Positions 10,413-52,109 of a DNA stretch of 64,000 bases are shown piece after piece; position 1 is the first letter of the stretch; the number at the start of each line of letters is the position of its first letter. A program made the position numbers and the translations under genes. The DNA comes from an uncultured Fibrobacterota bacterium (GTDB taxonomy: Bacteria; Fibrobacterota; OXYB2-FULL-49-7; CAYNYI01), in the NCBI GenBank assembly GCA_964401455.1, contig CAYNYI010000001.1:1245-65244 (forward strand), given 5' to 3'. The notes below the pieces were generated by a model. It was not told the origin of the DNA and made no database searches. It worked only from the letters and a program-made list of their open reading frames with translations.

Positions 10413-10512
10413 TTTATTATGTCCAGCACTTGAAGATGGTCTTTTTTTTTTATAGAATCTTAAACAGTGCCTCAAAAAGGCATATCATTTAAATATTAAA
10501 AAGGAGGTCTTT

Positions 10513-10995: not shown

Positions 10996-11051
10996 AATAA
11001 CAACCTTGTTCATGGGCAGGATATTTACCTGCCCTATTTTACAATAACGTA

Positions 11052-12791
11052 TCAATAGACCAATATCCGTCCTTCGTTACAGAAAATATAAAAAAGACCG
11101 TCTTTTATTTCCAAATCGACTGGAGTTAATTCCGGAGCGTCTTCATAAAAAGAAAATCTGGAAACCAGTCCTCCATCGAAGGAAATCTCAATAAATTCTT
11201 TGTCTGAATAATTGAGAAAAGCAAGCGTTTCATCCATTATGTTAAGACTTCCTATTTGATCATTGCTTATACCGTCTTCCTGAAGACCCGCGAAAAAAAT
11301 AACTTCACTAATACCGCTAAACAGATTTTTTTTGAGAATTTTATTCTCAGCGGCAACTACAAACAAAATACTGTCTGAAAATATGACTGCGTCAGTCATA
11401 TATGTTTCAGTGCTTAATGAGGAGATTTCAGTTCCGCTCAAATCAAAAATGTGAATAAAATCATCCGAGACTGTAACAACCCGATCTCCGTTTATAGAAA
11501 TTGATCTTAAGGCCGGCTGGGAAGCTGTTCCCCATACAGTTGAGAAAACCTCGTTCTCATCATACATATAAATTTTATTATTTGCCTGTTCCAATATAAA
11601 AACCCGCCCACCGGAGTCCAGCGCGACATCAGCGGGCTTAAAAATCAATTCCGGATCTTTTATTTCTGATAAAAATTCTCCCGAGAAACTTAGCTTCTGA
11701 ACCCTGGAATTACCCCTGTCTGCGCAAAAAATATTGCCGTTTTTATCAAGAACTGCCGCAGAAAGGCCGTTGAAACAGCCTGCCGATGAGCCTGCTCCGT
11801 TGCCCATAACATTTATAATTTCCCTGCAGGATTCGGATTTTACTGTCATGGCAGTTCCGGAAGGACCTTCCTCTCCGGAGTAACTTACCGAAACAAGACT
11901 GTATGAATATGTCTGACCTTGCTCCAAAGACGAGTCTATAAAAAAAGTTTCTGTAACCGGAACCGAATTCAAGAGCAGGCTTTCGCCGTTTCCGTTTTTT
12001 TCCCTGTAAATATTAATACCGGAAACAATTGAAGTATCAAACACACCCCATGATATTTCAGCGATTCTTTTCATGCTGTCATAAAAAATTCCCGAATTCT
12101 CCGGAGGCGGTATTCTAAAAGAAAGCACTATCGGAGAAGACAAAACATTATTTGTACCGGAACTAACCTCAAAAACAGTGTCCTTCGGTAAATATTTATC
12201 GAGAGTTGAAATGATCCTTACCGAATATTCACCTTCGGCCAATCCGGATATACTAAAGCTGCCGTCGTCGGCATCCACACCCTCAAAAATTTCATTTCCG
12301 AGTCCAAAAATAATAACAGTGGAAAGAGGATCTCCTTCTGCCAACTTCACATTTCCGGAAACCGCGCCTGATTCCGCAAGAGTATCTGAAAAACCTTCAG
12401 AAAGGCCGGAATAGTTTATGGAATCATCAAAAGAAACCTGTCCATTTCCGTCAGAGGAAAAAACATTATAAATACCGTCTGCGATAGTGTCCGCATAGAA
12501 CTTTCCCGAACTATCTGTATAGAAAACTTTAATCGAGGATGATCCGGAAAGCGGAATATTTTTATATGGAATGAACGAGACCTCCGCATTCGGGGCGGGA
12601 ATACCTGAAGAATAAAAAATCTGTCCTGTAAAGGCATTGTTGTTTTCTGTTTCGGATCCGCCGGAAGCTGTGTTGTTCTCTGTCTCTGAGCCCCCGGAAG
12701 CGGTGTCACCATCTGTCGGGATATTAGAACAGCCCGAAAACAGAAAAAGAATCAGAAAAAAATACTTGAAAAAAAGGAAATATTTGATCAT
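11052..12791 (-). CDS. NHL-repeat-containing secreted lipoprotein
   Basis: Lipobox-type signal (LFLFSGCSN), a tandem 11-aa repeat TASGGSETENN x2 and NHL-like blades (ADRGNSRVQKL..., several more). Length 579 aa. It overlaps the upstream TIGR02147 gene by 4 bp. Confidence 0.65.
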   Translation of the reverse strand: MIKYFLFFKYFFLILFLFSGCSNIPTDGDTASGGSETENNTASGGSETENNNAFTGQIFYSSGIPAPNAEVSFIPYKNIPLSGSSSIKVFYTDSSGKFYADTIADGIYNVFSSDGNGQVSFDDSINYSGLSEGFSDTLAESGAVSGNVKLAEGDPLSTVIIFGLGNEIFEGVDADDGSFSISGLAEGEYSVRIISTLDKYLPKDTVFEVSSGTNNVLSSPIVLSFRIPPPENSGIFYDSMKRIAEISWGVFDTSIVSGINIYREKNGNGESLLLNSVPVTETFFIDSSLEQGQTYSYSLVSVSYSGEEGPSGTAMTVKSESCREIINVMGNGAGSSAGCFNGLSAAVLDKNGNIFCADRGNSRVQKLSFSGEFLSEIKDPELIFKPADVALDSGGRVFILEQANNKIYMYDENEVFSTVWGTASQPALRSISINGDRVVTVSDDFIHIFDLSGTEISSLSTETYMTDAVIFSDSILFVVAAENKILKKNLFSGISEVIFFAGLQEDGISNDQIGSLNIMDETLAFLNYSDKEFIEISFDGGLVSRFSFYEDAPELTPVDLEIKDGLFYIFCNEGRILVY

Positions 12792-13618
12792 CTTTTTTCC
12801 TTAATATTTTTACTCATGGGAAACAACTGAAGATTCAGCTGATACACCCTGTTTTCATTACTGTCCTCGGCTGCCATCTTCATTACGCCTTTACGAAACT
12901 CTTTTATATAAGCCTTAAGATTTTTGAATCCCTTTTCCGACAGACCTAAACTGACAGTTGAAATATCTCTTTTATCTTCTGTATCGTTAAGTGCATTTTC
13001 GGCAAGACCGATGGTTTCTTTCTGAAATTTTTTAATAAAAAGGGATTTCGTCTCTTTTTTAGGGGACAGTGTTGTTTTTATGGGCTTAAAAAATCCGTCT
13101 TTTTTTTCCACAAGCCCCAGCTTTAATAGCAGCTGAAGCGACTTCCTCAAATCTACGGCTTTAATACGCGGCATAAAAAGTTTTGAAAGACCGGCAAAGT
13201 CCTCTCCGTCAAAATCCACAATAAAAAGCATTTCGCGAAGGGCTGTATGATGCCAGCTTGAATAGAATTCATATTGAGTTTCTTCTACTTTGGAAACCCT
13301 TAGGTAGTGCCTTTTAGAAGCGATTTTCTTATAGTAATAATCTTTTTGTTCGACATCTGCCGTCTGGTTATAAAAAACAAGGTCTTCAAAATATCCAAAG
13401 GCTTTCCCTTTCAATCCACAGGCTTTGGCAAGTTTAAATATTGTGTCTTTAGAGACGCTTCTTTTTCCCTCCAGAACATGATGAATAAAACTGCAGCTCT
13501 TAAAACCGGCATTTCTGGAAAATTCACTATATGAAAAACCAGCGTCAGCTTCTTTTTTCTCAAGAAGACAGTCTTTGATATATTCTCGGTAATCCAGATA
13601 ATTATAAACCGGATCCAT
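12788..13618 (-). CDS. TIGR02147-family protein (Fibrobacter-type paralogous DNA-binding family)
   Basis: N-terminus MDPVYNYLDYREYIKDCL...FSYSEFSRNAGFKSCSFIHHVLEGKRSVS matches the conserved start of TIGR02147 proteins. The start is placed at the ATG at 13616-13618; the ORF-track extension to 13690 is unlikely. Confidence 0.6.
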   Translation of the reverse strand: MDPVYNYLDYREYIKDCLLEKKEADAGFSYSEFSRNAGFKSCSFIHHVLEGKRSVSKDTIFKLAKACGLKGKAFGYFEDLVFYNQTADVEQKDYYYKKIASKRHYLRVSKVEETQYEFYSSWHHTALREMLFIVDFDGEDFAGLSKLFMPRIKAVDLRKSLQLLLKLGLVEKKDGFFKPIKTTLSPKKETKSLFIKKFQKETIGLAENALNDTEDKRDISTVSLGLSEKGFKNLKAYIKEFRKGVMKMAAEDSNENRVYQLNLQLFPMSKNIKEKR

Positions 13619-13832
13619 CTGTTTTCTCCCGGGAAAGTAAAAATTTAAACTTTGCTCTGTTCTCAGAGAAAAGCAGCAACATATAATCACATGTTTAATA
13701 AGTAATTAAATATTTATTAAAAGTCAATATTTACCACATACAGAGAAAATTTTTATAAATAATTCTTGCGTGTAGCAAAGATATTTAATACATTCATTTA
13801 ATGCAATACTAACGAAAACGCAAGGAGTGTCA

Positions 13833-15945: not shown

Positions 15946-16944
15946 TTAAATATAATTTTTTTCGGCCATCCTTAAAGCCTTTTCTTTTACCGCCAGCCGC
16001 AGCTCATAAGGACTTTTTATTGTGACACAGTCCTTCATTGAAAAAATCCAGTCTATAAGGTTTTGATTTACTGAGCATTGCATTTTAAGACGGATACCCC
16101 CGTTTTTTTTCTCTTCTATTTCCTGTGAGCAATGCCAGTTTATTTCACTGATTTTTTCCGCTTCCGGACTGTCTATTTCAAGCTCAATTTTTTTTGTTTC
16201 AGAACCTGTCAGGCTTTCAAAAGGGTGATGAAAAAAATCTCTTACATCAAAATCGTCAGGAATAACAAAACTTCTATCGAGCATCTCCGGTTTTATTATT
16301 CGATGCAGAGAAAAAGTCTTTAGTTTCCAGCTCCTGAGACACCTGCCTATTACCTGCCATTCCTTGTTCTGATAAATAAGAGTGTACGGCTCTATTCTTC
16401 TTTCGGACTTTTCGGGCATACCTCCTTTTCTGTAGCGCATCTTTATTTTTTTTCTGTTCATTATACAGTCAAGAATTATACTGAATTCATTCCTGAGGCC
16501 TTTCACGGGCTCAAAGGGTCTGTAGAAACAAACACTCCTGCATTTTTCTCTCACATTTTCCATTGTTTCTCCGCTGATTTTTACCGGCTGCAGTAGTTTA
16601 TTGAATACAGGATGTATTTCTTCGGAAAAACCGGTCTGAGTGTATATTCTGAGAGCTTTTTCTGCAATGAGGACAAGCGCTATCTCATTTTCGTCGAGCC
16701 AGTTCATAGGCAGAGAAAAAGATTTATCTTTATATTCGTAACGCTTTTTTTGTTTGCTGTAGAAAATTTCCGCCCCGAGATTATAACGCATCAACTCCAG
16801 GTCCCGCTCAATTGACCTTTTTGAGACCTGAAAATGTTCTGCGGCCGATTCCGCGGAATAAAAAACACCTCTTTTGATCATATCATCAATTTCATAAATT
16901 CTGCATAAAGACATCCGGCTTATATTCATAATATCGCCTTTCAT
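15946..16944 (-). CDS. HTH + WYL-domain transcriptional regulator
   Basis: N-terminal DeoR-like HTH (AEHFQVSKRSIERDLELMR) followed by a WYL-like region (RKKIKMRYRKGG...RIEPYTLIYQNKEWQVIG). Length 332 aa; an alternative start lies at Met6. Confidence 0.6.
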   Translation of the reverse strand: MKGDIMNISRMSLCRIYEIDDMIKRGVFYSAESAAEHFQVSKRSIERDLELMRYNLGAEIFYSKQKKRYEYKDKSFSLPMNWLDENEIALVLIAEKALRIYTQTGFSEEIHPVFNKLLQPVKISGETMENVREKCRSVCFYRPFEPVKGLRNEFSIILDCIMNRKKIKMRYRKGGMPEKSERRIEPYTLIYQNKEWQVIGRCLRSWKLKTFSLHRIIKPEMLDRSFVIPDDFDVRDFFHHPFESLTGSETKKIELEIDSPEAEKISEINWHCSQEIEEKKNGGIRLKMQCSVNQNLIDWIFSMKDCVTIKSPYELRLAVKEKALRMAEKNYI

Positions 16945-21250: not shown

Positions 21251-24067
<2,817 letters not shown>

Positions 24068-24075
<8 letters not shown>

Positions 24076-27606: not shown

Positions 27607-29265
27607 CTATTTATTTTTCAAAATTTTTTCCGCGTGTTTTTTTACAGTATCAGATTCAGCGTCCCCCATCATTCTTCCGATTTCTTTAACCCTTGCCTCA
27701 TCATCAAGATTTTTTATTTCTGTGACTATCCTGCCCTTCCTTTCGTTTTTCATAACCATAAGATGAATATCTGATTTTGAAGCTATCTGATGGAGATGGG
27801 TGATGCACAGGACCTGCTTATGTTTAGACAGCTTTTTAATAAACGAACCTACAGAATTAGCGGTTTCCCCTCCGATACCGGCATCTATTTCATCAAAAAC
27901 AACCGTAGGAACTCTGTCTTTTCCCGCAAGAATATTTTTTATAGCCAGCATAACTCTGGATATTTCCCCGCCTGAAGCAGTCCTGCTGAGGCTCTTAAAA
28001 TCCTCTCCTTTATTGGAAGATATAAGAAATTCTACACGATCGGCTCCAGTGCCGGAAAGATACATTTCGGAGAAATCAATCTCTGTTTTGAACGCAGCGC
28101 CGGACATGCCAAGCGACGCCAGCGAATCTGTTATCGCTTTGTCAAGCGAGCCTGCTGTCGTTTTCCTGTTCGCGCTTAATATGCGGGCTTTTTCCAGAGC
28201 GTCTTTCTTTAATTGTTCACACTCCTTTTTTAAACGGGCAATTTCGAATTCAAAATTTTCACCTATATTTATTTCATTTTTCAGAGAATCTCTTAGGGCA
28301 ATCAACCCCGCGGTATCGGTATTATGTTTTTTCATAAGCTTTCTTAAAAGCGCGGCCCGATCATTAAGCTCCTCTATTTCAGAGGGATCAAATGACAAGT
28401 CTGACAGGCAAGCTGAAGCTTCTGAGGACAAATCCTCTAACTCATAAATAACACTTTCAAGCCTTTTGTCCCAATCTTTAAATTTAGGATCTGTTTCCAG
28501 TATTTCTTTTAATGCGTTTTTACCTCGCGAAATCAAAGTGAGAGCTCCGCTGTCTTCTTCTGAAGTAATGTCTCTGAGAGAAGAGCATGCCTCACCTATT
28601 TTTTCCGAATTATTAAGTACAGAAAGCTTGTTTTCGATTTCATCGTATTCGTTCTCCGACAAAGAAGCCTTTTCGAGCTCATCATAAACCCATCGGTTAT
28701 AATCAGCCTTTTTCTTGAGTTCTGCCTCCCTGCCTTCCGTTTTTTTCAAGACTGCTTCTTTATTTGTTAAAACTTCAAAAACTTCTTTATATTTTTTTCT
28801 AGTCACGATGTCACCGGAAACGGAGTCAAGAACCTCAATGTGTACATCAGGATTCAAGAGATACTGATGCTCATGCTGACCATGAATATCAACGAGCCAT
28901 TTGCCAATTGAAGAAAGAAGAGACAGAGGAACTTTCTCGCGGTTTATCATACATTTATTAGTTCCCTTTTTGTTTATTTCCCTTCTTATAATTATTTCCT
29001 CTTCACAAGGAACCTCTGCTTTATTCAAGAGATCGCGAACAGCGCTGTCTTTTTCCAAAAGAAAAACGCCCTCAACAAAAGACCTCTCTTCTCCTGACCT
29101 TATGGAGTCTGTGTTAGCCCTTTCGCCTAAAAGTAGTGACAATGCGCCGATTATTATTGATTTCCCGGCACCCGTTTCTCCGGTAATAGAAATAAACCCG
29201 CGCTCAAAATCGGTTTCAAGCTCTTCTATCAACGCATAGTTGCATATAGATATAGACCTAAGCAT
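27607..29265 (-). CDS. recN: DNA repair protein RecN
   Basis: MLRSISICNYALIEELETDF...ITGETGAGKSIIIGAL Walker A; a long coiled-coil middle; C-terminal signature/Walker B region. The start is taken at Met8 of the track ORF. Confidence 0.85.
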   Translation of the reverse strand: MLRSISICNYALIEELETDFERGFISITGETGAGKSIIIGALSLLLGERANTDSIRSGEERSFVEGVFLLEKDSAVRDLLNKAEVPCEEEIIIRREINKKGTNKCMINREKVPLSLLSSIGKWLVDIHGQHEHQYLLNPDVHIEVLDSVSGDIVTRKKYKEVFEVLTNKEAVLKKTEGREAELKKKADYNRWVYDELEKASLSENEYDEIENKLSVLNNSEKIGEACSSLRDITSEEDSGALTLISRGKNALKEILETDPKFKDWDKRLESVIYELEDLSSEASACLSDLSFDPSEIEELNDRAALLRKLMKKHNTDTAGLIALRDSLKNEINIGENFEFEIARLKKECEQLKKDALEKARILSANRKTTAGSLDKAITDSLASLGMSGAAFKTEIDFSEMYLSGTGADRVEFLISSNKGEDFKSLSRTASGGEISRVMLAIKNILAGKDRVPTVVFDEIDAGIGGETANSVGSFIKKLSKHKQVLCITHLHQIASKSDIHLMVMKNERKGRIVTEIKNLDDEARVKEIGRMMGDAESDTVKKHAEKILKNK

Positions 29266-29270
29266 ATTTC

Positions 29271-30134
29271 TTACCGATCCGGACACCAGCCCAGTTTATT
29301 TCTTAAAAGCTGAGAATATTCAATCATAGGAAGGCTGACAATCAGAGTCTCATATTCTGATTTTTTAACAATAACCCTGTCTCCCATTTTAAGAGTAACC
29401 CCTTTTTTACCGTCAGCCGAAACCATCGCCTGCACTCGCGATTTCTTGATCGTAACTTCAAGCTCTTTATCAGAAGGAAAAATCACCGGTCTTTCAGTAA
29501 GAGAATGGGGAGAAATCGGATTCAGAAGAAAACAATCCAGAGACGGATAAAGTATCGGCCCCCCGCATGAAAGGGAATAGGCCGTTGATCCGGTAGGCGT
29601 TGAAATAATTATCCCGTCGGCATTATAGGACCCAAGGAGATCATTTTCCAGATTAACGGAAAGATTTACAACATTTCCGCCCTTTCTGTATATAACAACT
29701 TCGTTTAAAGCCGAATCACAATATATTTCTTTTTTACCTCTAAAAACTTTTGTCTCAAGCCGCTTCCTTCTGCTTAGTCGTGTTTTGTTTTCCAAAACCA
29801 TTTTAATTTCATTTTTAAATTCCGAGAGAGAAAACTCAGTGAGAAAACCAAGTTCTCCTATATTAAGACCGATTATCGGAATTTTTCTTTTAAGAACCAT
29901 GGAAGCAGCCGAAAGAAGCGTACCGTCCCCGCCCACAGAGATAATAAAATCTGCTTTTTTTTGAAACTGGGTATCGGAATAATATTTATATCCCGGGATT
30001 CTGTGTCTTTTTAAAACTTCATGAAAAAAAACATCGCATTCAATGCCGGAAAGAACTGACGAGATTTCAGAGACAGCCGCTTTGATTTCCTTTTTCCTGC
30101 TGAAGCCTATTATTCCAAAACTCTTCCTGTTCAT
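29271..30134 (-). CDS. nadK: NAD(+) kinase
   Basis: GGDGTLL motif (ISVGGDGTLLSAA); 287 aa. Confidence 0.85.
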   Translation of the reverse strand: MNRKSFGIIGFSRKKEIKAAVSEISSVLSGIECDVFFHEVLKRHRIPGYKYYSDTQFQKKADFIISVGGDGTLLSAASMVLKRKIPIIGLNIGELGFLTEFSLSEFKNEIKMVLENKTRLSRRKRLETKVFRGKKEIYCDSALNEVVIYRKGGNVVNLSVNLENDLLGSYNADGIIISTPTGSTAYSLSCGGPILYPSLDCFLLNPISPHSLTERPVIFPSDKELEVTIKKSRVQAMVSADGKKGVTLKMGDRVIVKKSEYETLIVSLPMIEYSQLLRNKLGWCPDR

Positions 30135-31535
30135 TTAAGCCCTGGTCTTTCTGCCGTTTACCGATTTAATTAAAGAACTGTATTCGATGTTTTCATTCTT
30201 TACATCCTTAAGAACACTTTTCCCCCGACAGCAGCAGGCCGCTGCAAAAAAAGCCGTTGAAAGGGGACCTGAGTTTCTGCAGAAAAATTCTGAGCCGTCA
30301 TAATCTTTTTTTCCTCGCAGAACAATACCGTCTTCAATTTCGCCTGTTGAAACATCCATATTCCTGAGATTAAAAACCGTAGCAGAAATTAAATCGGGAT
30401 TGTTGTTACGCAAACCTTCAGCGTTTCTTATTACAGTTTCTCCTTCGGCAAAAGACGCCGCGATGGAAACCAGAGGGATTTCATTAACAATAAATGCCGA
30501 GTCCTCACCACCGATTTTTCTTCCCTTTAGACGGCTTGTTGAGGAAACAATGTCAGCGGTCAGTGCCCCACCGGCAACACTGCGGTTTTTAAAAGAAATG
30601 TCCGCGCCCATTCTTTTTAATATAGAAACGATTCTCGACCGTGTTGAATTTATATTAACTCCCTCGACAGTAATTCCTGAGTTTTTCAAAATAATTGACA
30701 ACACAACAAGATGAGCGGCATAATTAAGATCACCGGGAACAGAAACGGTTTTAAAAGCCGGTATTTCTCCTCCATAAACAATGACTGTTTTCGGTGTTTT
30801 CCCCTGAGACTCAGTCAAACTTTTCTTTTTCTCGATTTTCCTGATTCTTTTTGCAAGTTCGTCATTTTCTTCGGGATCATCCTCCACGCTTTGACTAAAA
30901 GAGGACCTTTTTACCTCACATGAAAACTTCTGATATTCAAGAATCCTCTCCAAGGTATCATTTCCCGGGCCATCTTCCGAAAAAACGCTTTTTCCTCTTG
31001 CAAATAAAAAGGTCAAAAGAACAAAATTTTTAACTAGCTCATCCGGCGCGGAAAGCTTAATCTCGGCTCCATAAACCATTGATGGTTTCAATAACAGAGT
31101 AAATTCATTATCGTTAAAAACTGCACCAATGCCAAATTTTTTCATATACGGTTTAAGCCGCGCATAATATCTATAAACTTCCTGTGAATGGAAATAAAAA
31201 ATGGTTTCCCTTTTTTGCAAAAGGGTATACGCGAATAGCCCCCCGGTATTTTCATCAATAAAATCGAGGTCGATTCTTAAAGGGGTTTTTGAATCCTCAG
31301 GAACTGATTCAACCCTCGTTTTATCTTCCGATATTTCTATTTTCGCTCCAAGTTTTTTATAAATATCAAAAATTCTCGCCGTCTCGATGTTAATGTCTGA
31401 AATGCCGAAATTTTCAAGAACAGCTTCTGATTTGCAAAAGAGTCCGATGGAGAATGCTTTTAACGCAAAAAAATTGTCTCTCACGCAGCGAAATTCGCCT
31501 CTAATAAAATTTATTCCGTTCTGCTCTATATTCAA
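30135..31535 (-). CDS. EPSP-synthase-fold (enolpyruvyl transferase family) protein, highly divergent and apparently lacking catalytic residues
   Basis: The C-terminal half aligns with AroA: VSVPGDLNYAAHLVVLSIIL against YLVEGDASSASYFLAAAAI, and IVNEIPLVSIAASFAEGETVIRNAEGLRNNNPDLI against [39 protein letters not shown]. GSKS-Lys22 (here GEFR), KETDR (here NNNPD) and NDHR (here CRNSGP) are not conserved. Length 466 aa; it sits next to tyrA. Confidence 0.55.
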   Translation of the reverse strand: MNIEQNGINFIRGEFRCVRDNFFALKAFSIGLFCKSEAVLENFGISDINIETARIFDIYKKLGAKIEISEDKTRVESVPEDSKTPLRIDLDFIDENTGGLFAYTLLQKRETIFYFHSQEVYRYYARLKPYMKKFGIGAVFNDNEFTLLLKPSMVYGAEIKLSAPDELVKNFVLLTFLFARGKSVFSEDGPGNDTLERILEYQKFSCEVKRSSFSQSVEDDPEENDELAKRIRKIEKKKSLTESQGKTPKTVIVYGGEIPAFKTVSVPGDLNYAAHLVVLSIILKNSGITVEGVNINSTRSRIVSILKRMGADISFKNRSVAGGALTADIVSSTSRLKGRKIGGEDSAFIVNEIPLVSIAASFAEGETVIRNAEGLRNNNPDLISATVFNLRNMDVSTGEIEDGIVLRGKKDYDGSEFFCRNSGPLSTAFFAAACCCRGKSVLKDVKNENIEYSSLIKSVNGRKTRA

Positions 31536-32632
31536 TCCCTGGTCCTCGCTGTAAAATGGTTTTTATTCAATCTTTTTACGACTTCCGCCGCTTCTTCCGC
31601 TGTTTCAAAGCCTAACCTTATTGTTCCGCCTTCACCCTCGCGCACCTTAACAACTTCTATATCTTTTATATTTATATCTGAAAGAATTTTTGAAATCGAA
31701 AATATAATTCCGGGCTTGTCCTCACAAACAACCATCACTTCAGAGAGAGGTTTTAAAAACCCTTTACGGTTATGCGAAATCTCCTCCCGGCTAACCCTTG
31801 CTTTGTCAAAAAGAGATTGTGCCCCGGGTTTTCCGATTTCTTTTTTTAAATTTTCAAGCTCTGAAACATATTGATCAATAAAAAAAGAAATCTCTTCAGA
31901 ATTTGTCAAAAGGATGTCTTTCCACATAGAGTATGGAGAAGAAGCTATTCTCGTGAGATCTCTAAAACCTCCGGCGGCCAGCTTGGTATATTCACCGAAA
32001 CGGTCTTTCCTGCCTGCAACTGTATTCATAAGGCATACAGCTGCGGCCTGAGGAAGGTGTGATATTCCCGCCGTTCTTTTGTCATGCGAGACTGGATCCA
32101 TAACTAAAAGAATAGATCCGAGAGATGTACAAAAAGCTCCGAGTTTTTGAACTTTATCCTCAGGACACTTATCACATGGAGTTAAAACATAAACGGCATT
32201 CTGATACAAAAAAGGGTCCGAGGCCTGCAAACCGCTCCTCTCCGATCCTGTCATCGGGTGTCCACCTATAAAGACCGGACCGTCTGTAAAAAACTCAGAA
32301 GCTTTTTCCATTATCGTTTTTTTAGTGCTTCCTATATCGGTGATTATCGCATTCGGATCAATCAGGTTTTTCAGGTTGCCAAGCTCGGAAATTAGTTTTA
32401 TAATTCTGCTTATGGGGGTACATAAAACAATAAGGTCCTTTCCCGGAAGTATTTTTTCAATATCTTCGTATTCACACGCTTCGTCAATCAAAGACATTTC
32501 TTCCGCTTTGTCAAGCGAATCTTTTCTTGAGACACCTGAAATCATAGCTTTGGGAAATTTACGCCGCACAGCCTGCGCTATCGAGCCGGACATCAAACCC
32601 ATACCGATTAATAAGATATTTTTAAAAGGCAT
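31532..32632 (-). CDS. tyrA: prephenate dehydrogenase with C-terminal ACT domain
   Basis: N-terminal NAD-binding motif ILLIGMGLMSGSIAQAV, PDH core and a C-terminal ACT-like ~70 aa. Confidence 0.8.
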   Translation of the reverse strand: MPFKNILLIGMGLMSGSIAQAVRRKFPKAMISGVSRKDSLDKAEEMSLIDEACEYEDIEKILPGKDLIVLCTPISRIIKLISELGNLKNLIDPNAIITDIGSTKKTIMEKASEFFTDGPVFIGGHPMTGSERSGLQASDPFLYQNAVYVLTPCDKCPEDKVQKLGAFCTSLGSILLVMDPVSHDKRTAGISHLPQAAAVCLMNTVAGRKDRFGEYTKLAAGGFRDLTRIASSPYSMWKDILLTNSEEISFFIDQYVSELENLKKEIGKPGAQSLFDKARVSREEISHNRKGFLKPLSEVMVVCEDKPGIIFSISKILSDINIKDIEVVKVREGEGGTIRLGFETAEEAAEVVKRLNKNHFTARTRD

Positions 32633-45318: not shown

Positions 45319-47439
45319 ATGAATAATATTCTTTTAATATCAAGCAATAAAAAAGAGGAAGAAGTATTAAAGCTTCTACTTGAACAGTCTTCTTTTAAGG
45401 TTATTTCATCCATCCCGGACTATGCAAACTATCTTAAGATCCTCCAATTTAAACCGAGGCTTATTCTAATTGAAATGCCGTCAAACTATGTTAATCAAAT
45501 AAGCTATATGAAAATGGTGCGCCGCAACAAAAACACAAGGAAAACACCAATCATTTCTTTCGGCAGTCATTCCGACAAATTCATCACTAACAGCTTTGTT
45601 GCTTCCGGTTCAAATGAATATATATCGAGGCCTCTTAAGGCTAAAGATCTTCTGGAAAAATTCCAGCGTCTTTTAAGGTTAAAATCCCTCCCTTCTGAAA
45701 AAAACAAAAACGAGGAGGAGCAAGAGCTTTCAGAAATAATGCTTGATGAAAACAAAGCCGGTTCCGAAAAAATTAATGCCGTAGTTTCTCATGTAGACAA
45801 AGTTCTTGCTTTTCCTTTTACTGTTGCTAAACTACTAAAAATCTCAAGCAGTGAAGAATCCGGTGCTTCAGACCTCGCAAAGGTAATTAAGTCAGACCCG
45901 GTTATAACAGCCAAAATCCTCAAAGTATGTAACTCTGTCCTTTTTGCGACAAGAAACAACAAGACGATTTCAGACGTAAAAAAAGCTATAGTCAGAATAG
46001 GTTTTAACGAAACGAAACATATAGCCATGTCAATGTCTGTAATTAACCTTTTCTCAAAAGATGAAAAAAGCACCGGTTTTGACAGAATAGATTTTTGGTA
46101 TCATTCTCTTGCCACAGCTGTCATTTCCGAAAAACTGGCATCTACAAGCGGCGTGGCAAACCCCGAAGACGCCTTTGTTGCCGGCCTCCTCCATGATTTT
46201 GGAATTATGATAATGGATGAGTTTATGGGCAATGTTTTTTTTAAGGTCATAGAAAAAACACTAAACACTCCAATAAAATTTATTGATGCCGAAAAAGAAA
46301 CAACCGGCGTTGATCACACAGACTTTTCCGCGGAGCTTTTTGAAAAATGGAAGCTTCCCTCTGCAATAATAAACAGTATGAAAAACAATCACCGATACCT
46401 TGAGATTGCTGAAGATTCTGAAGATTCGGGTATTACACAATGCGTAGGCCTGGCAAACATAATAGCCAGAAGCTTATCTATAGGTAAAGATGTTGATTAT
46501 TTCATTCATTATCCTACGGATGAAATTTTTAAAAAATTGAAATTGCCGCACGGTCTTCAATCTAAGTTTTTTGATGACATTTTTGAACAGATGAATATGT
46601 TCAATAAATTTCTTAATATTGACAAACGCTCCTTCCCTGATCCGGACATGAGCATACCGGGAAAAGACGAAGAAACCAGAATTGTTTACATAAAAAATAA
46701 AAAGGAGAAGTTCAATCCTGTTTTTGCTTTTACCAAAAATCTTACTGAAAATATTTTAGAAACGTCGTTTGAAAAACCCGAGACTGATTTTGAACCCGGA
46801 GTTAAAAACGTCTTTATTTACGATTTTTCAAAAGAGGTTTTTGATCTCTCTAAAATTAAAAGTCCGGAGGCCTCTCCAAAAATAATTATAGGCCAAAAAG
46901 AAAAGAACGACGAAAGAACCCGTTATTATGCTGATGAAATAAACCTTCGTTTCCTTGAGAATGACATTACTTTTTTTACAACAGGAAAGGAAACAATAAA
47001 AAGAGAATTTGTCGGGAAAGAAGATGAAAATAGCATACATATATCAATACGGGACCTTCAGGACGGAATAAAATGTGTTGATATAAAAGGGCGCATGATA
47101 GTCGCCAATATGCTGAAAATTCAGAAAAAAATGATTAATATTTTAAAAGAAAACCCTAAATATCTGTCTTTGGACCTGTCTAAAATAAGTTTTATAGACA
47201 GTAACGGCATTATGCTCATAATTAATCTTAATAAAAGAATAAGCAAAAATGGCGGAAAATTTTGTCTTTTGTCTCCGTCAGAAAATGTAACCGATCTCTT
47301 AAAAATAAACAATATTTCTGATCTTGTAACCATTGCTCACTCAGAAAAGGAACTTGAAAAAGTTTTCGATATAGAACTCCCGCCTATGGAAGAAATCGAC
47401 CCGGAAGTTTATGATGTGGGCGGTGATGAAATAGTTTAA
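45319..47439 (+). CDS. multidomain signalling protein: pseudo-receiver + HDOD + uncharacterised middle + C-terminal STAS (anti-sigma-factor-antagonist-like) domain
   Basis: N-terminal REC-like fold with the acceptor position substituted (LILIEMP instead of D) and the DD pair absent. HDOD core (…ITAKILKVCNSVLF…AGLLHDFGIMIMDEF). C-terminal STAS-like segment (LSLDLSKISFIDSNGIMLIINLNKRISKNGGKFCLLSPSENVTDLLKI). Confidence 0.6.
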   Translation: MNNILLISSNKKEEEVLKLLLEQSSFKVISSIPDYANYLKILQFKPRLILIEMPSNYVNQISYMKMVRRNKNTRKTPIISFGSHSDKFITNSFVASGSNEYISRPLKAKDLLEKFQRLLRLKSLPSEKNKNEEEQELSEIMLDENKAGSEKINAVVSHVDKVLAFPFTVAKLLKISSSEESGASDLAKVIKSDPVITAKILKVCNSVLFATRNNKTISDVKKAIVRIGFNETKHIAMSMSVINLFSKDEKSTGFDRIDFWYHSLATAVISEKLASTSGVANPEDAFVAGLLHDFGIMIMDEFMGNVFFKVIEKTLNTPIKFIDAEKETTGVDHTDFSAELFEKWKLPSAIINSMKNNHRYLEIAEDSEDSGITQCVGLANIIARSLSIGKDVDYFIHYPTDEIFKKLKLPHGLQSKFFDDIFEQMNMFNKFLNIDKRSFPDPDMSIPGKDEETRIVYIKNKKEKFNPVFAFTKNLTENILETSFEKPETDFEPGVKNVFIYDFSKEVFDLSKIKSPEASPKIIIGQKEKNDERTRYYADEINLRFLENDITFFTTGKETIKREFVGKEDENSIHISIRDLQDGIKCVDIKGRMIVANMLKIQKKMINILKENPKYLSLDLSKISFIDSNGIMLIINLNKRISKNGGKFCLLSPSENVTDLLKINNISDLVTIAHSEKELEKVFDIELPPMEEIDPEVYDVGGDEIV

Positions 47440-47456
47440 ATATTAATGCACTTATT

Positions 47457-48065
47457 ATGTCATCTCAAATTATAAAATCTTCTTTATTTCTCTTCTTGCT
47501 TCTTAATCCATTTTTATTAATTATATATATTCTGGATCTTGTTCAGGACCTTAATCACAAATCATTCAGCAAGCTTTTGATTAATGCCGGATTAATCTCT
47601 TTTTTTGTTCTTTCCTGTTTTGCTTACGCAGGAACATCTTTTTTCAGCGGCTTTCTTCAAGTTAAATTCTATTCTTTTCAGATTTTCGGCGGCATTGTTT
47701 TTCTCATTATATCAATACGTTTTATTTTTCTTGGAAACACGGCGTTTAAAGGCATCAGGGGAAACCCCTCCTCTTCAAGCGGCTCAATAGCAATGCCTAT
47801 AATGATCGGCCCAGGTACTGTAGGAGGGGCTGTTCTTGCGGGGGAAAACCTGGTTTTACCACTTGCTTCAATATCTATTTTTTCGTCTATCTTTTTTTCA
47901 GTTATAATAATGATCATTCTGAAATTTGTTTATGATTTCGTTAAACCAAGAAACGAATTAATTGTTGAAAGATATATAGACATAGCTGGCCGAATCGCGT
48001 CTCTTATTATAGGGACCTTCTCAATTGAAATGATAATGTCCGGAATTACCTGTTGGATTTCATGA
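47457..48065 (+). CDS. MarC-family (UPF0056) integral membrane protein
   Basis: 202 aa, six TM helices, N-terminal LLLNPFLLIIYILDL pattern resembling MarC-family proteins. Confidence 0.5.
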   Translation: MSSQIIKSSLFLFLLLNPFLLIIYILDLVQDLNHKSFSKLLINAGLISFFVLSCFAYAGTSFFSGFLQVKFYSFQIFGGIVFLIISIRFIFLGNTAFKGIRGNPSSSSGSIAMPIMIGPGTVGGAVLAGENLVLPLASISIFSSIFFSVIIMIILKFVYDFVKPRNELIVERYIDIAGRIASLIIGTFSIEMIMSGITCWIS

Positions 48066-48697
48066 AAAAACTCTCGGTTCCATTTATAAAAACAGAACAA
48101 CCTGAAAGCTATTTTTCCGGAAGTGATAGTCTAATTCATTCTGTTTCAAACTGTTCATGGCCCGGGTTTAATTATAAGCCGACTGTCTCTTTTAAAATAG
48201 CCCATGATAATAAATCCATTTTTCTTAATTATTCTGTTTCTGAAAAATATATTCTTGCCTTATGTACAAAAAACAATGAGATGGTTTGTAAAGACAGCTG
48301 TGTTGAATTTTTTCTTTCTCCCGACAAAAAAGGCTATTATAATTTTGAATTTAACTGTATAGGGACAACTCTTTGCTTTTTCGGTAAAAACAGACACGAC
48401 AGAAACCCCCTTTCCGGCAAAAGCATAGACAGTATAGAAAAACTTTCTTCTCTTGGAACTACGCCTTTTCAAGAAAAAACCGGTAGCTTTACATGGGACC
48501 TTTTTTTAAAGATACCTTTGTCCGCTTTAGAGCATCACAAAATACATGATCTGCGTGGAAAATCTTTTCGTGCTAATTTTTACAAATGTGGAGACCGTCT
48601 TACAGAACCTCATTTTCTTTCATGGAATAAAGTAAACAGCGATAAACCGGATTTTCACCGGCCGGAATTTTTCGGGGAAATTTATTTTGAAAAGTGA
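48053..48697 (+). CDS. hypothetical protein (DOMON/CBM9-like beta-sandwich suspected)
   Basis: 214 aa, aromatic-rich with no TM segment; overlaps the flanking genes by 13 and 11 bp, implying an operon with the MarC-like and patatin genes. Confidence 0.4.
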   Translation: MDFMKKLSVPFIKTEQPESYFSGSDSLIHSVSNCSWPGFNYKPTVSFKIAHDNKSIFLNYSVSEKYILALCTKNNEMVCKDSCVEFFLSPDKKGYYNFEFNCIGTTLCFFGKNRHDRNPLSGKSIDSIEKLSSLGTTPFQEKTGSFTWDLFLKIPLSALEHHKIHDLRGKSFRANFYKCGDRLTEPHFLSWNKVNSDKPDFHRPEFFGEIYFEK

Positions 48698-49697
48698 ATA
48701 CAAAATATTCCGAAGACCAAAAATCCTCTGCCTTGACGGAGGGGGCCTAAGAGGAATATTTACCCTTCAGATTCTAAAGCAGATCGAGAAAGATACCGGA
48801 AAAAAACTATATGATATTTTTGATCTTATATGCGGAGTAAGCACCGGATCTATAATCGCTTTTATGTCGGGTCTTCTGAAATTTCCTACGGAAAGAATTG
48901 AAGATATATACCTTGAGGTAGGCGAAAGAATTTTTTCCAAATATCCGCTAATGGGTATTATTGATCTCTTTTTTAAAAACTCCAAGTTTAATTCGGATAT
49001 TCTTGAACATGAGCTCAGATCTTATTTCGGAGAAGACAATAAGCTTTCTGATTTTTCGAAAAATAAACCGATGGTTTCCTGTACCGCAAGCGAAAGCTCT
49101 TTGTCTCCCGGTAGATTATGCGTTTTCAGTACCTATGATCACGAAGGCCTGCCCTTTCATGGAACCAATAAAATAAAAACCTGGGAAGCTGTAAGAGCTT
49201 CTTGTTCCGCGCCTTTTTACTTTACTCCCATGAAAATAGAAAACATATCATATGGGTCCCTTTCTGTTAATCCAAATACTTTTCCCGGCCCCATAGAAAT
49301 GCCAAAAAAAAGAAGAACTTATATAGACGGTGCGGTTATCTCGGCTAATCCTTCATATATCTCTTATCTTGAATCAAGATTTCTTTTTAAAAGCCTTTTG
49401 AAACCTTTTGTTGTTAATGTCGGCACGGGGCAGGCTCTTTCTTCTCTACCGGATTCTAATGATGAAATGTGGATCTATGGTCTGACAAGAAAAACAATTG
49501 AGACATCCATGAGCGTTCTTCATGTACCAGCAGTTATGTCCGGTCTGCTGCATAAAAATTACTATTATATAAACGGCACCGTTGCCTATGGGGGTATAAG
49601 CAACCTGGAATATGTAAAAAACTGGATCGAAGAAGGAAAAAATACAGCAAACTCTTTTTCAGAATGGGAAACCCTTATAAAAAAGCTCCGTTCATGA
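48687..49697 (+). CDS. patatin-like phospholipase
   Basis: Oxyanion/Gly-rich motif LCLDGGGLRG, nucleophile elbow CGVSTGS and a DGA-type second catalytic motif (YIDGAVIS). Confidence 0.75.
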   Translation: MKSEYKIFRRPKILCLDGGGLRGIFTLQILKQIEKDTGKKLYDIFDLICGVSTGSIIAFMSGLLKFPTERIEDIYLEVGERIFSKYPLMGIIDLFFKNSKFNSDILEHELRSYFGEDNKLSDFSKNKPMVSCTASESSLSPGRLCVFSTYDHEGLPFHGTNKIKTWEAVRASCSAPFYFTPMKIENISYGSLSVNPNTFPGPIEMPKKRRTYIDGAVISANPSYISYLESRFLFKSLLKPFVVNVGTGQALSSLPDSNDEMWIYGLTRKTIETSMSVLHVPAVMSGLLHKNYYYINGTVAYGGISNLEYVKNWIEEGKNTANSFSEWETLIKKLRS

Positions 49698-51422
49698 AGA
49701 GGCTGCTTTCTTTTTATTTGTCACATACTGCTGTATTACGCCGATAATATTGCTCAGTGTCCAGTACACCAGAAGTCCTGACGGAAAATTATAAAGAAGG
49801 AAGAAAAGCATCACAGGCATAAAATAAACCATCATCTTCTGTTTCGGATCCTGCATTGTCATTTTGCTTTGGAAAAACATTGAAATTGACATCAGAAAAA
49901 CCAGAAAATGGATTTCAGTCCCTATGAATGGAAGTTCAAATGGTAATTTGAATAAAACATCCGGTTGAGACAAATCCTTTATCCAAAAAACAAAATCCGC
50001 TCCTCTAAGCTCAATTGATTTTCTCAAAGTAACGAACAAAGATATAAATACGGGCATCTGCAAAAACATAGGCAAACAACCGGAAACCGGGTTTATTCCG
50101 GACCTTTTATACAGTTCCATCGTTGCTTTATTAAGCTTGACCGGGTCATTTGAATATTTTTCTCTCAATTCCTGAATTTTTGGCTGAATTTCTTTCATAC
50201 CTGCCATTGATTTGGCGCTTTTTAATGTCATCGGCAAAGTAACCACTCTGCTTATAATTGTTAAAAATATTATTGAAACACCATAATTCGGAATCAGTTT
50301 ATAAAAAGCATTTAAAAGCCATAAAACAAGAGCGCATAGTTTAGGAAACCAGATATCCGCTCTGAAAAACCATCCATATCCACTAAATACCGTTTTTTCC
50401 AGATCATTTCCATAACTGCTCAACAACGAGTGTTTTGCCGGAGAAACCACAATCCGGTATTTCTCATATCCGTCTGACCGTACATTACTGAATTTCATTC
50501 CCGTATTTACCCGGTTACGAAATTTTTCCATTTGTTTATTTTCATCATCAAGCTTAATATATCTGAAAACACTTTCAATATCTTTCTCTTCAGGGTTTTG
50601 TATTGACGCCAAAAAATATTTTGATTTCAGAGCGATCCATCTTGTATAACCGCTAAGCTTCTCAACACGCTCATCTTTGTCAATGCTGACTTTCTCAACA
50701 TCGTCTCCATAATTTATATATGCCTCAAGTTCATCCTGGCCTTTTTGCAGGTTTTCTTCCGATTCAACAATTCCGGCATTCCATTCAAGATCATAGGATA
50801 TGTCTATGTTTTTATCAGAAATAATTTCCAAATCAAAATCATAGCTTCCTTCATAAAAAGTAAATCTTTTTTCAAGCAAACCGAATTCCGTTTCTGCCCT
50901 CATTACTAAAACAGAACTTTTATCTACAACGACCTCTGAAGCGGACGAATCTATACCGGGGCCCGAAAAACTGAAATCATATATTTTCTTTTTATCATTA
51001 TTCAGAAAAACTCCAAGAACGCCTTCATCTCTGGGTATTATTGAAACATAATCAGAGTCTCTTCCCGCATATTCTGAAAAAACAAATTTTTTCAGTAATC
51101 CATTTTTTGAAGAAAATTGCGCGTAATATTTATCTGTTATAACTGTAATCAGCCGCTCTTCAACAGTTTCTTCCGTTTCCCCGGAAAGACTCAAAGAATT
51201 TGATTCTTCTTTTCCTGTTGAATCATAATCTGATTCTTGTTTTTCGTTTATTGTTTCAACGGCTTCATTATTATTACGGTCAAGAACCTCATCATTTGTA
51301 TTCCTTTTTACCGGTTCTGTGCCAAAAAGAGCCGGGGCTATTTTATTCATATAAAGATCACTGGAAAAAAACATGATCCCAACGATGATAATGATTATCG
51401 CTTTAAAAGTGTTTCTGTCCAT
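49692..51422 (-). CDS. yidC: membrane protein insertase YidC
   Basis: N-terminal TM, large periplasmic domain, C-terminal 5-TM Oxa1 core and a basic tail (KKKAASS). It lies between yidD and mnmE as in most bacteria. Confidence 0.85.
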   Translation of the reverse strand: MDRNTFKAIIIIIVGIMFFSSDLYMNKIAPALFGTEPVKRNTNDEVLDRNNNEAVETINEKQESDYDSTGKEESNSLSLSGETEETVEERLITVITDKYYAQFSSKNGLLKKFVFSEYAGRDSDYVSIIPRDEGVLGVFLNNDKKKIYDFSFSGPGIDSSASEVVVDKSSVLVMRAETEFGLLEKRFTFYEGSYDFDLEIISDKNIDISYDLEWNAGIVESEENLQKGQDELEAYINYGDDVEKVSIDKDERVEKLSGYTRWIALKSKYFLASIQNPEEKDIESVFRYIKLDDENKQMEKFRNRVNTGMKFSNVRSDGYEKYRIVVSPAKHSLLSSYGNDLEKTVFSGYGWFFRADIWFPKLCALVLWLLNAFYKLIPNYGVSIIFLTIISRVVTLPMTLKSAKSMAGMKEIQPKIQELREKYSNDPVKLNKATMELYKRSGINPVSGCLPMFLQMPVFISLFVTLRKSIELRGADFVFWIKDLSQPDVLFKLPFELPFIGTEIHFLVFLMSISMFFQSKMTMQDPKQKMMVYFMPVMLFFLLYNFPSGLLVYWTLSNIIGVIQQYVTNKKKAASS

Positions 51423-51425
51423 AAT

Positions 51426-52030: not shown

Positions 52031-52109
52031 TTTTTGTACTCATTCTTTTACGAAACCCGTGTTTATTTTTGCGCTTACGGTTTCTAGGCTGAAATGTCAG
52101 ATGTGCCAT
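51972..52109 (-). CDS. rpmH: 50S ribosomal protein L34
   Basis: Translated by hand because the ORF is under 60 aa: [45 protein letters not shown] (compare E. coli [39 protein letters not shown]). ATG at 52107-52109. Confidence 0.85.

Follow-up and report, generated by a model that had tools for sequence, protein, structure and literature searches.

The reading frame that lies between tyrA and nadK in the 64-kb window (the whole stretch of DNA analysed here, from an uncultured Fibrobacterota bacterium) encodes a protein related to EPSP synthase (EPSPS) that appears to have kept the complete fold of the enzyme while losing its canonical active site. We refer to this EPSPS-like protein as AroA*, a name coined in this analysis and one that corresponds to no curated model. 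Judged from sequence comparisons, AroA* belongs to a sizeable family that is conserved in evolution and had not been described; we found no curated model of this family, and no description of it in the literature on EPSPS pseudoenzymes, inactive enolpyruvyl transferase paralogues, the shikimate pathway of Fibrobacterota, or the absence of aroA from MAGs. It is most likely a catalytically dead EPSPS derivative, retained in aromatic amino-acid biosynthesis for a role that is non-catalytic or involves altered binding. The first-pass annotation of this DNA had proposed a protein of the EPSPS fold, next to tyrA, in which the canonical catalytic residues are missing, and this description is fully borne out by the alignments, the AF2 models and the Foldseek comparisons.

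The gene is closely packed between its neighbours (Table 1). Its TTG start codon overlaps the stop codon of tyrA by 4 nt (TTGA), and the ATG of nadK abuts the AroA* stop codon, with both junctions tight enough to suggest translational coupling. The gene had been described as upstream of tyrA, but in the direction of transcription it lies downstream. The NCBI gene call is shorter, at 449 aa, and is named 'hypothetical protein ACLFQK_00085'. Because the other two same-strand frames across the ORF carry 24 and 42 stop codons, and the probability of finding no stop in 466 codons is ~1e-15 from the base composition, the open frame is not a product of chance. GC and GC3 of the gene are those of its neighbours, and marks of a pseudogene are absent, there being no frameshift, premature stop or truncation in a product that is colinear with full-length EPSPS. 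In the 64-kb window tyrA is the sole aromatic-pathway gene found.

Table 1. Positions in the window of the AroA* gene, its sequence landmarks and its neighbours.
Feature	Coordinates	Strand	Evidence
AroA* ORF, 466 aa, intact; EPSP-synthase-fold protein without canonical active site	30135..31535	minus	ORF list, Pfam/NCBIfam partial matches, AF2, Foldseek
GAGGA, Shine-Dalgarno-like, 7 nt upstream of the AroA* TTG	31543..31547	minus	sequence
Residues 18-26, VRDNFFALK, aligned with PGDKSISHR; K22→N21, S23→F22, R27→K26	31458..31484	minus	MAFFT, hhalign
Residues 214-246, family-specific insertion; basic amphipathic helix 226-243 (ELAKRIRKIEKKK) with near-invariant R230	30798..30896	minus	alignments, AF2
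Residues 246-446, PF00275 EPSP_synthase match, only stretch recognised	30198..30800	minus	85.7 bits vs threshold 22.8
Residues 350-354, VNEIP, aligned with IDExP; D313→N351, E352 retained	30474..30488	minus	phmmer, MAFFT
Residues 375-382, LRNNNPDL, aligned with LRVKETDR; K340→N378, E341→N379, R344→L382	30390..30413	minus	phmmer, MAFFT, hhalign
Residues 421-424, NSGP, aligned with GDHR; H385→G423, R386→P424	30264..30275	minus	phmmer, MAFFT, hhalign
tyrA, prephenate dehydrogenase with C-terminal ACT domain; directly upstream of AroA*	31532..32632	minus	Pfam PDH_N, PDH_C, ACT; NCBIfam PRK06545-type
nadK (NAD kinase), directly downstream of AroA*; conserved downstream neighbour in the family	29271..30134	minus	Pfam, junction, synteny
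recN, next after nadK in the conserved tyrA-AroA*-nadK-recN string	27607..29286	minus	annotation, synteny

Elsewhere in the window, gyrB is interrupted by an in-frame TAA and ligA is frameshifted; both genes are essential, and these disruptions reflect either sequence errors or gene decay. Probable errors affect at least two essential genes of the assembly, and we considered whether the divergence of AroA* might itself be artefactual, arising in a normal aroA from faulty sequencing, assembly or framing. However, the substitutions run throughout the protein without any break in the frame, the gene is identical in an independent NCBI assembly (0 differences within it; 5 SNPs over 21 kb, all elsewhere), and the same features recur in family members from dozens of independent metagenomes. 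Given this unbroken frame and the agreement between the two assemblies, an artefact is effectively refuted, and we attach almost no probability to it.

AroA* is predicted with high confidence to form the complete two-domain EPSPS fold, the 'inside-out' alpha/beta arrangement of six beta-alpha-beta-alpha-beta-beta units. AF2 modelling gave a pLDDT of 87.1 and a pTM of 0.86 from a mostly canonical alignment, and 90.5 and 0.89 from an alignment of the family only. In Foldseek comparisons the model matches the class II EPSPS structures 3slh and 3rmt with TM 0.82–0.88 over ~470 columns, and there are full-length matches to the Coxiella, B. halodurans and CP4 enzymes at TM 0.78–0.88. Alignment of the family profile to a canonical EPSPS profile with hhalign gave a probability of 100% (E = 5.7e-75) over 431 colinear columns. 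Canonical EPSPS are on average 28% identical to AroA* over residues 247–466, versus 19% in the N-terminal half; the TIGR01356 (aroA) model scores 113.8 bits over residues 243–444 only and does not reach its cutoff of 287.25, and the best sequence match in the PDB, Coxiella AroA (E = 7e-32), is likewise confined to the C-terminal half. The N-terminal domain also keeps the EPSPS fold in the AF2 model and by Foldseek. MurA shares this superfamily fold (TM ~0.7) but differs in its gene context, which is unrelated; a MurA-like function was rejected, as TIGR01072 gives 26.3 bits against a cutoff of 392.7 and the catalytic Cys115/Asp loop of MurA is not recognisable.

Substitutions in the active site were taken from three concordant alignments, using phmmer, MAFFT (with 8 and with 74 homologues) and profile–profile hhalign, and reference residues are numbered according to E. 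coli EPSPS. Eighteen of the 20 conserved ligand-contact positions are replaced and two are kept, a lower retention than the 25 of 58 among the remaining conserved columns (Fisher p = 0.0056). The catalytic acid/base pair of Asp313 and Glu341 is replaced by N351 and N379. Changes beyond the segments listed in Table 1 include GNSGT to DENTG, in which only T97 of N94-x-G96-T97 is kept; ASAQVKS to APDELVKN, which puts D165-E166-L167 in place of S169-S/A170-Q171; SRDHTER to GNDTLER; and SFP to EYS, with E451 in the Lys411 region. Within the Lys motif only the R27 to K26 change is conservative, and the R124 equivalent, R122, is kept but lies in a weakly aligned region. Altogether the cleft loops have lost seven basic residues and gained three acidic ones, and the cleft appears to have gone from cationic to neutral or acidic. 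The first-pass annotation had reported that the KETDR and NDHR clusters are substituted, and phmmer, MAFFT and hhalign all confirm this, the corresponding segments being LRNNNPDL and NSGP. It was also correct in that the catalytic lysine is absent, although its register for this motif, at GEFR (residues 13–16), does not hold, and the motif aligns instead at residues 18–26. A profile alignment, by which that reading might have been overturned, failed to do so, since in the hhalign result the catalytic columns contain no conserved Lys, Asp or Glu.

Word-indexed searches with family profiles returned mainly canonical EPSPS, and only an exhaustive HMMER profile search exposed the family, revealing ~100 clusters (at 50% identity) of EPSPS-like proteins without any canonical motif. 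We scored four canonical motifs (DKS..R, SAQ.K, KE.DR and DHR) in the 148 best representatives from this search, and 94 full-length sequences lack all four. Most of the motif-less sequences carry an insertion of ~25–35 residues that separates the RDHTER-equivalent helix from the PGD strand at the second crossover between the domains and contains the helix motif [EP]-L-x-[KR]-R-[LIM]; the query version is ELAKR230IRK, and R230 is conserved in at least 90% of 97 non-canonical sequences. AF2 predicts the helix at a pLDDT of ~78–83 when given the family-only alignment. The alignments show that the insertion is missing from most canonical EPSPS, and that two fully canonical proteins, P0002 and P0174, have it. 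Among canonical EPSPS, these metagenomic, uncharacterised proteins stand nearest to the family, and their helix, E-[LV]-E-R-R-L-R-[RK], is at the same site; unlike AroA* they have every catalytic motif intact and exceed the TIGR01356 cutoff (with 389 and 396 bits), and they are found in ribD-ribE-EPSPS-pyk and EPSPS-aroE contexts rather than with tyrA and nadK. Partial-loss intermediates are represented by P0171, P0208 and P0149. The query has all nine of the near-invariant family residues (G13, R230, D269, M309, G365, G398, G403, G408 and G438) and forms a singleton branch with no more than 37% identity to any relative. UPGMA on identities places it about equally far from the canonical and non-canonical groups, in a tree that is uninformative as to single or multiple losses of the active site because of long-branch effects.

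At the 8 tyrA loci closest to that of the query, which were found via tyrA, AroA* is directly downstream of tyrA, and in more distant tyrA loci canonical aroA occupies the slot after tyrA. Among loci found independently of tyrA, chorismate mutase and/or tyrA is directly upstream in 7 of 8 family members, and nadK is downstream in five of the six where that side is visible. The family gene order is (lepA-lepB-)(trpBA-)chorismate mutase and/or tyrA → AroA* → nadK(-recN), at the 3' end of aromatic-amino-acid operons, and group A has a tyrA-AroA*-aroE-aroB cluster. By the criterion of gene order, AroA* is the positional orthologue of aroA. No canonical aroA was found within ±10 kb of AroA* at any locus examined. 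Neither the large family with its conserved synteny, nor the conserved insertion helix, nor the retained N-terminal fold had been seen in the first-pass annotation.

Because the intact tyrA, chorismate mutase and trpBA genes need chorismate, some EPSPS must exist in the genome, and it could be AroA*. The protein would then still be the EPSP synthase of its host, representing an extremely divergent class with relocated residues, possibly including the Arg-rich insertion helix. Such a role is consistent with the position of the gene in place of aroA, particularly within the group A cluster, with the conservation of the downstream pathway genes and the lack of a canonical aroA in the ±10 kb examined, and with the retention of R122, K26 (for R27) and T97 and of the near-invariant Arg in the insertion. 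However, K22, D313, E341, K340, R344, H385 and R386 are all replaced, and differently in each subgroup; no family-wide acid-base pair or basic cluster has arisen in replacement, the partial-loss intermediates resemble the progressive decay of a disused site, and the cleft has lost its cationic character. Canonical EPSPS carry the same insertion, which shows that it does not serve as a substitute active site. We thus regard a divergent EPSPS as distinctly unlikely. Lower still is the probability we assign to the broader proposal that AroA* proteins are the sole EPSPS homologues of their genomes, performing the sixth shikimate step or another enolpyruvyl-type transfer through a rebuilt site without Lys22, Asp313 and Glu341, possibly with use of the Arg-rich insertion helix.

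In relatives of the query AroA* is under purifying selection (dN/dS ≈ 0.07–0.09), and it evolves about as fast as the neighbouring NadK, RecN and chorismate mutase. For example, in the comparison of L012 with L030, AroA* has a dN of 0.20 and a dN/dS of 0.086, the latter beside 0.083 for recN; between P0192 and L060, where synonymous sites are saturated, AroA* shares 74% amino-acid identity (dN 0.199) and NadK 69% (dN 0.244); and P0192 and P0346 are 48% identical in AroA* and 51% in both NadK and chorismate mutase. At the DNA level, P0192 does not differ from P0345. For the query gene, we infer selection from the integrity of the ORF and the retained family residues, because it is a singleton at most 37% identical to its relatives. 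AroA* in this MAG could alternatively be a decaying relic, an unprocessed and functionless pseudogene whose frame is still open by chance, and its lineage without close relatives, its greater divergence than that of its neighbours (25–29% identity to relatives versus ~38% for NadK), and the disruption of gyrB and ligA in the same window are all in keeping with one. This we think very unlikely in view of the stop-free run of codons set against the many stops of the other frames, the presence of all nine near-invariant residues, the confident modelling of both domains, the tightness of both junctions, and the clear purifying selection in relatives.

The subgroups of the family each have their own strongly conserved polar residues, located exactly in the loops that once formed the active site; examples are W-x-F-E, H99 and R120 for group A, and D22, R196, K280, R451-W-P and D413/D416 for group B. 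Such residues would fit a neofunctionalised enzyme or a small-molecule binder, with a re-lined cleft that has lost the phosphate-binding Lys/Arg residues and that transforms or senses a ligand. This ligand would probably be a metabolite of the pathway that carries no phosphate, for example chorismate, prephenate, an aromatic amino acid or shikimate. The strength of purifying selection, which is comparable with that on bona fide enzymes, and the constant operon association with chorismate-using enzymes also point this way. However, the conserved residues differ between subgroups, which argues against one shared chemistry, and family-wide conservation is limited to glycines, M309, D269 and the insertion Arg; moreover, the sequence points to no ligand, and the query has the signature residues of neither group A nor group B. 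We therefore consider neofunctionalisation possible but on balance unlikely.

We favor the explanation that AroA* is a dismantled derivative of a class II aroA that has acquired a non-catalytic role, with another aroA making EPSP, and as a complete account we give it about an even chance of being correct. AroA* would have descended from a class II, TyrA-linked aroA, the anion-binding and catalytic constellation of which was dismantled while the fold stayed stable and full-length. It would no longer make EPSP, this reaction presumably being carried out by another aroA elsewhere in the genome, and it would be kept, for example, to sense ligands, to regulate the biosynthesis of aromatic amino acids or to act there as a scaffold, most plausibly by pairing stoichiometrically with the co-translated TyrA and/or chorismate mutase. 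A job other than that of EPSPS is probable, because the active-site residues are lost and the family is conserved in aromatic-amino-acid operons. We note, as points that count against this account, that the EPSPS needed to supply the chorismate-using enzymes could be AroA* itself, and that the subgroup-specific polar residues fit ligand binding or catalysis as well as they fit a structural role. The first-pass annotation had listed three alternatives and chosen none; the data favor a conserved non-canonical protein, whether pseudoenzyme or neofunctionalised, a divergent EPSPS with relocated residues is unlikely, and simple decay is disfavored.

Comparisons with known systems provide some context for this account. 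Class II EPSPS (Coxiella burnetii 3slh/3tr1 and Agrobacterium CP4 2gg6) has the same two-domain full-length fold and a colinear profile, and has in common with AroA* the C-terminal structural motifs ILKRMGA, AASFAEGETVIR and GE..DG and the operon slot after tyrA, but it is without the ~30-residue basic-helix insertion and has the 18 ligand contacts that are replaced in AroA*. The top-scoring NCBIfam model is that of the bifunctional TyrA-AroA proteins (PRK14806; Pseudomonas/Acinetobacter type; 5buf/5bs5 AroA domain), which AroA* matches over the AroA part only, at 143 bits and far under the cutoff of 902. These proteins also have the order tyrA→aroA, although the two are fused there and are overlapping genes here, and AroA* is catalytically stripped; this likeness suggests an ancestral functional coupling of both proteins. 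The chorismate mutase of M. tuberculosis is activated by DAHP synthase, and by analogy the small AroQ-type chorismate mutase found beside AroA* in many loci may be seen to resemble this partner-dependent mycobacterial enzyme. A dead paralogue that regulates a metabolic enzyme is exemplified by the trypanosome AdoMetDC 'prozyme' (PMC5201418). Both cases share with AroA* the concept of a noncatalytic protein or pathway enzyme acting as a regulatory partner, and neither is homologous to it; we offer them as an analogy for how AroA* might act, and make no claim of membership.

AroA* proteins pass the Pfam EPSP_synthase threshold, and pathway annotation can be misled by them. Some pipelines name them '3-phosphoshikimate 1-carboxyvinyltransferase', as JGI does for P0157 and P0111, and PGAP calls such proteins hypothetical; as a result the Fibrobacterota, Latescibacterota and related MAGs may have the shikimate pathway scored as complete or incomplete for the wrong reason. 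Classifiers of glyphosate sensitivity will file AroA* as 'unclassified EPSPS', and the paper on EPSPS classes I–IV mentions only 'unclassified' sequences. If AroA* proteins were indeed the sole EPSPS homologues of their genomes, they would constitute a new, glyphosate-irrelevant class of EPSPS. Canonical enzymes with the insertion, intermediates and stripped forms together provide a rare natural series in which an active site is dismantled and the fold kept. If our favored account is correct, a textbook enzyme has given rise to a large and conserved pseudoenzyme or re-purposed family whose translation is coupled to that of TyrA or chorismate mutase, which would point to a hitherto unknown layer of regulation or complex formation in the pathway.

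AroA*, the EPSPS-like protein of the window, is encoded by a gene packed tightly between tyrA and nadK: its TTG start overlaps the tyrA TGA stop by 4 nt (junction …GAGGACCAGGGATTGA…), a GAGGA lies 7 nt 5′ of the TTG, and the nadK ATG directly follows its TAA stop, with recN and a CHASE2 adenylate/guanylate cyclase gene coming next. The first-pass annotation had placed the gene upstream of prephenate dehydrogenase; transcriptionally it is downstream. The other two same-strand frames contain 24 and 42 stop codons over the gene and the AroA* frame has none, its GC and GC3 are like those of neighbouring genes, and NCBI assembly GCA_046542585.1 has the same gene ('hypothetical protein ACLFQK_00085', start called at a later GTG), with 5 SNPs in 21,350 bp relative to the window and none within AroA*. 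A first protein search returned only canonical non-self matches of ≤35% identity, which pointed to an orphan; that this divergence is an artefact we regard as scarcely credible. The window as a whole comes from the origin region of a Fibrobacterota MAG and carries dnaA, dnaN, recF, gyrB, rnpA, yidC, mnmE, mnmG, rsmG and parAB.

Features of the window and of loci (L) encoding relatives (P, representative EPSPS-like proteins)
Source	Feature	Position	Strand	Remark
Window	AroA* ORF	30135-31535	-	Intact, 466 codons
Window	tyrA, prephenate dehydrogenase	31532-32632	-	C-terminal ACT domain; adjoins AroA* 5′ side
Window	nadK, NAD kinase	29271-30134	-	Adjoins AroA* 3′ side
Window	recN	27607-29286	-	After nadK
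Window	Small ORF, 111 aa	32646-32981	-	Between gatA and tyrA; hydrophobic N-terminal segment; 0 Pfam matches; in other lineages this slot, just 5′ of tyrA or AroA*, holds a small AroQ chorismate mutase
Window	Region shared with JBKHBB010000001.1 (NCBI, 37.7 kb)	20135-41484		Essentially same genome; window is a second, longer assembly reaching beyond both contig ends
Window	SNPs in CHASE2-cyclase gene	25621, 25782, 26462, 26530		Versus JBKHBB010000001.1
Window	Fifth SNP	32925		In small ORF
Window	gyrB	57764-59680	+	Single in-frame TAA (58712-58714), exactly at conserved Arg of …DI(R)EGL…, frame unchanged beyond; either sequence/assembly error or genuine nonsense mutation in essential gene
Window	ligA, NAD-dependent DNA ligase	22100-24075	-	Overlapping ORFs in different frames (junction 23458-23461), 205 aa (adenylation domain N-terminus) and 453 aa; same split in NCBI assembly; probably frameshift error or pseudogene
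Window	Low GC, 0.30-0.35	~46000-58000		Around rnpA, yidC, dnaA, dnaN, recF; rest 0.40-0.44
Window	ORF, 424 aa	55035-56309		Between dnaN and recF; 0 Pfam matches
Window	WYL/WCX-domain protein	15946-16944	-	Amid nucleotide-sugar/capsule genes (GDP-mannose dehydratase, epimerases, Wzi)
Window	DUF4423 protein	12788-13690	-	Same surroundings
L004	aroE and aroB after AroA*	7822-9828		Apparently normal
L005	aroE and aroB after AroA*	10248-12371		Apparently normal
L027	aroE after AroA*	2455-3345		Apparently normal
L039	aroE after AroA*	2179-3048		Apparently normal
L002	P0002	6869-8236		ribD-ribE-EPSPS-pyk; unrelated context
L055	P0174	2040-3410		EPSPS-aroE; unrelated context

Family models recognise just the C-terminal half of AroA*, as seen with PF00275 (residues 246-446 only, 85.7 bits), the aroA equivalog model TIGR01356 (113.8 bits, cutoff 287.25) and phmmer against the PDB, where class II EPSPS (Coxiella 3tr1/3slh, E = 7e-32) match mostly that half; the murA model gives 26 bits (cutoff 393). 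AlphaFold2 nevertheless models both domains confidently (pLDDT 87.1 and pTM 0.86 when the alignment is mainly canonical, 90.5 and 0.89 when it contains non-canonical relatives only), despite 19% identity to canonical enzymes in the N-terminal half versus 28% in the C-terminal half. Foldseek matches extend along the entire model for the EPSPS of Coxiella, B. halodurans and Acinetobacter and for the CP4 enzyme (TM 0.78-0.88); those to MurA are weaker. AroA* is thus predicted to be a complete folded EPSPS-type protein, neither a half-domain nor a wreck.

The ligand-binding constellation of this fold has been removed. Two MAFFT alignments (8 and 74 homologues) and a profile-profile alignment place the motifs in the same register, and all agree with the first-pass annotation that the canonical catalytic residues are missing; the active-site Lys is indeed absent, but the GEFR taken for its site (residues 13-16) lies five residues upstream of the true position, N21. 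Canonical PGDKSISHR is VRDNFFALK in AroA*, GNSGT is DENTG, ASAQVKS is APDELVKN, SRDHTER is GNDTLER, IDExP is VNEIP, LRVKETDR is LRNNNPDL, GDHR is NSGP and SFP is EYS, so that in E. coli numbering the changes include K22→N, S23→F, R27→K, D313→N, K340→N, E341→N, R344→L, H385→G and R386→P. AroA* retains 27 of the 78 canonical columns that are ≥90% conserved, with 2/20 of those contacting ligand (the T97 and R124 equivalents) versus 25/58 of the others (one-sided Fisher p = 0.0056), and its cleft loops have lost seven basic residues and gained three acidic ones.

AroA* belongs to an insertion-bearing family. Taking one genome per species, we looked for relatives of the window TyrA and inspected the gene after each tyrA. 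Where TyrA is closest (eight loci), the gene directly 3′ of tyrA is an EPSPS-like ORF (443-466 aa) without canonical motifs; at more distant loci (L006, L008, L009, L013, L016, L017, L034) a normal aroA occupies that slot. AroA* and all eight relatives share, at the same site, a charged insertion of ~25-35 residues whose helix follows the motif [E/P]-L-x-[K/R]-R-[L/I/M]; in the window protein the family alignment predicts an 18-residue helix there (226-243, pLDDT about 78-83). When 1.84 billion cluster representatives were searched exhaustively with HMMER, a small profile of non-canonical sequences gave 8,328 matches, the best 148 of which include 94 full-length proteins without any of the four canonical motifs, most with the insertion. 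These split into several very divergent subgroups, with the window AroA* a singleton; its closest relatives (P0192, P0204, P0213) are 25-29% identical overall (36.7% over 281 residues by tblastn) and have nearly its insertion, DEL.KRIRKI..KK. Members score 60-121 bits on TIGR01356, and NCBIfam has no model covering the family.

Comparison with canonical enzymes reveals a graded series. P0002 and P0174 are fully canonical EPSPS (389 and 396 bits on TIGR01356) with the same insertion, E-[LV]-E-R-R-L-R; the insertion is therefore older than the active-site loss and does not stand in for the lost site. The intermediate P0171 keeps DExP and DHR and lacks K22 and the K-E pair of KETDR, and P0208 and P0149 show further partial combinations. 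Former catalytic positions hold different residues in different subgroups, and the family as a whole has kept neither an acid-base pair nor a basic cluster, the pattern expected of a site that has ceased to serve its old chemistry. A cleft re-lined to bind or transform a different, probably non-phosphorylated metabolite seems to us rather unlikely.

Relatives are under purifying selection. Between the group B loci L012 and L030, AroA* has dN 0.20 and dN/dS 0.086, beside 0.083 for RecN, 0.046 for NadK and 0.065 for TyrA. In the subgroup nearest the window AroA*, P0192 and L060, with synonymous sites saturated, are 74% identical in the AroA* C-terminal half (dN 0.199) and 69% in NadK (dN 0.244), and P0192 and P0346 are 48% identical in AroA*, 51% in NadK and 51% in chorismate mutase. 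By these comparisons the family appears to be functional. In the loops that formerly made up the active site, moreover, every subgroup strongly conserves a set of polar residues of its own. A decaying relic in the window MAG would be very improbable; the window protein, singleton as it is, has 9/9 of the residues near-invariant in 97 non-canonical sequences (G13, R230, D269, M309, G365, G398, G403, G408, G438), R230 being the Arg within the insertion helix.

Gene order is conserved. Three Fibrobacterota loci (L010, L012, L030) have the full tyrA-AroA*-nadK-recN string of the window, and L004, L005, L027 and L039 have tyrA-AroA*-aroE, with aroB next in L004 and L005; the group A pathway operon is otherwise intact around this catalytically dead-looking gene. 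Contexts found independently of tyrA are tyrA-AroA*-nadK-recN (P0258, P0339), tyrA-AroA*-nadK (P0073), tyrA-AroA* (P0147), lepB-CM-tyrA-AroA* (P0157; CM, chorismate mutase), lepA-lepB-trpB-trpA-CM-AroA*-nadK (P0192/P0345) and lepA-lepB-CM-AroA*-nadK (P0346, L057), with the intermediate P0149 elsewhere (aminotransferase-argS-AroA*). Across the sampled contexts AroA* thus constantly occupies a 3′ place in aromatic amino-acid operons, and its reading frame usually overlaps or abuts those beside it.

Because tyrA, chorismate mutase and trpBA are intact and depend on chorismate, some gene must supply EPSPS; no canonical aroA was found within ±10 kb of AroA* in the loci examined. We consider it unlikely that AroA* is itself still a functional EPSPS with a rebuilt site, a reading that would become the leading one were it the only EPSPS homologue in its genomes. 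To the reading that AroA* has lost EPSP synthesis and serves, without catalysis, as a partner or sensor of TyrA, chorismate mutase or both, we give about an even chance. This role is suggested by the tight translational coupling to tyrA and by the existence in nature of TyrA-AroA fusions, the fusion model being the best NCBIfam match of AroA*, itself a separate gene coupled to tyrA. Those AroQ chorismate mutases that a partner protein activates offer one parallel. Another is with known dead-paralogue regulators of enzymes (PMC5201418). The EPSPS fold and the pseudoenzyme concept are already known; literature and family-model searches found no curated family or paper describing AroA* proteins, and a lineage of this kind, large, conserved, stripped of the EPSPS catalytic residues and embedded in aromatic operons, appears not to have been described before. 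AroA* itself is inferred to have given up making EPSP and to be kept for a different task linked to the synthesis of aromatic amino acids.
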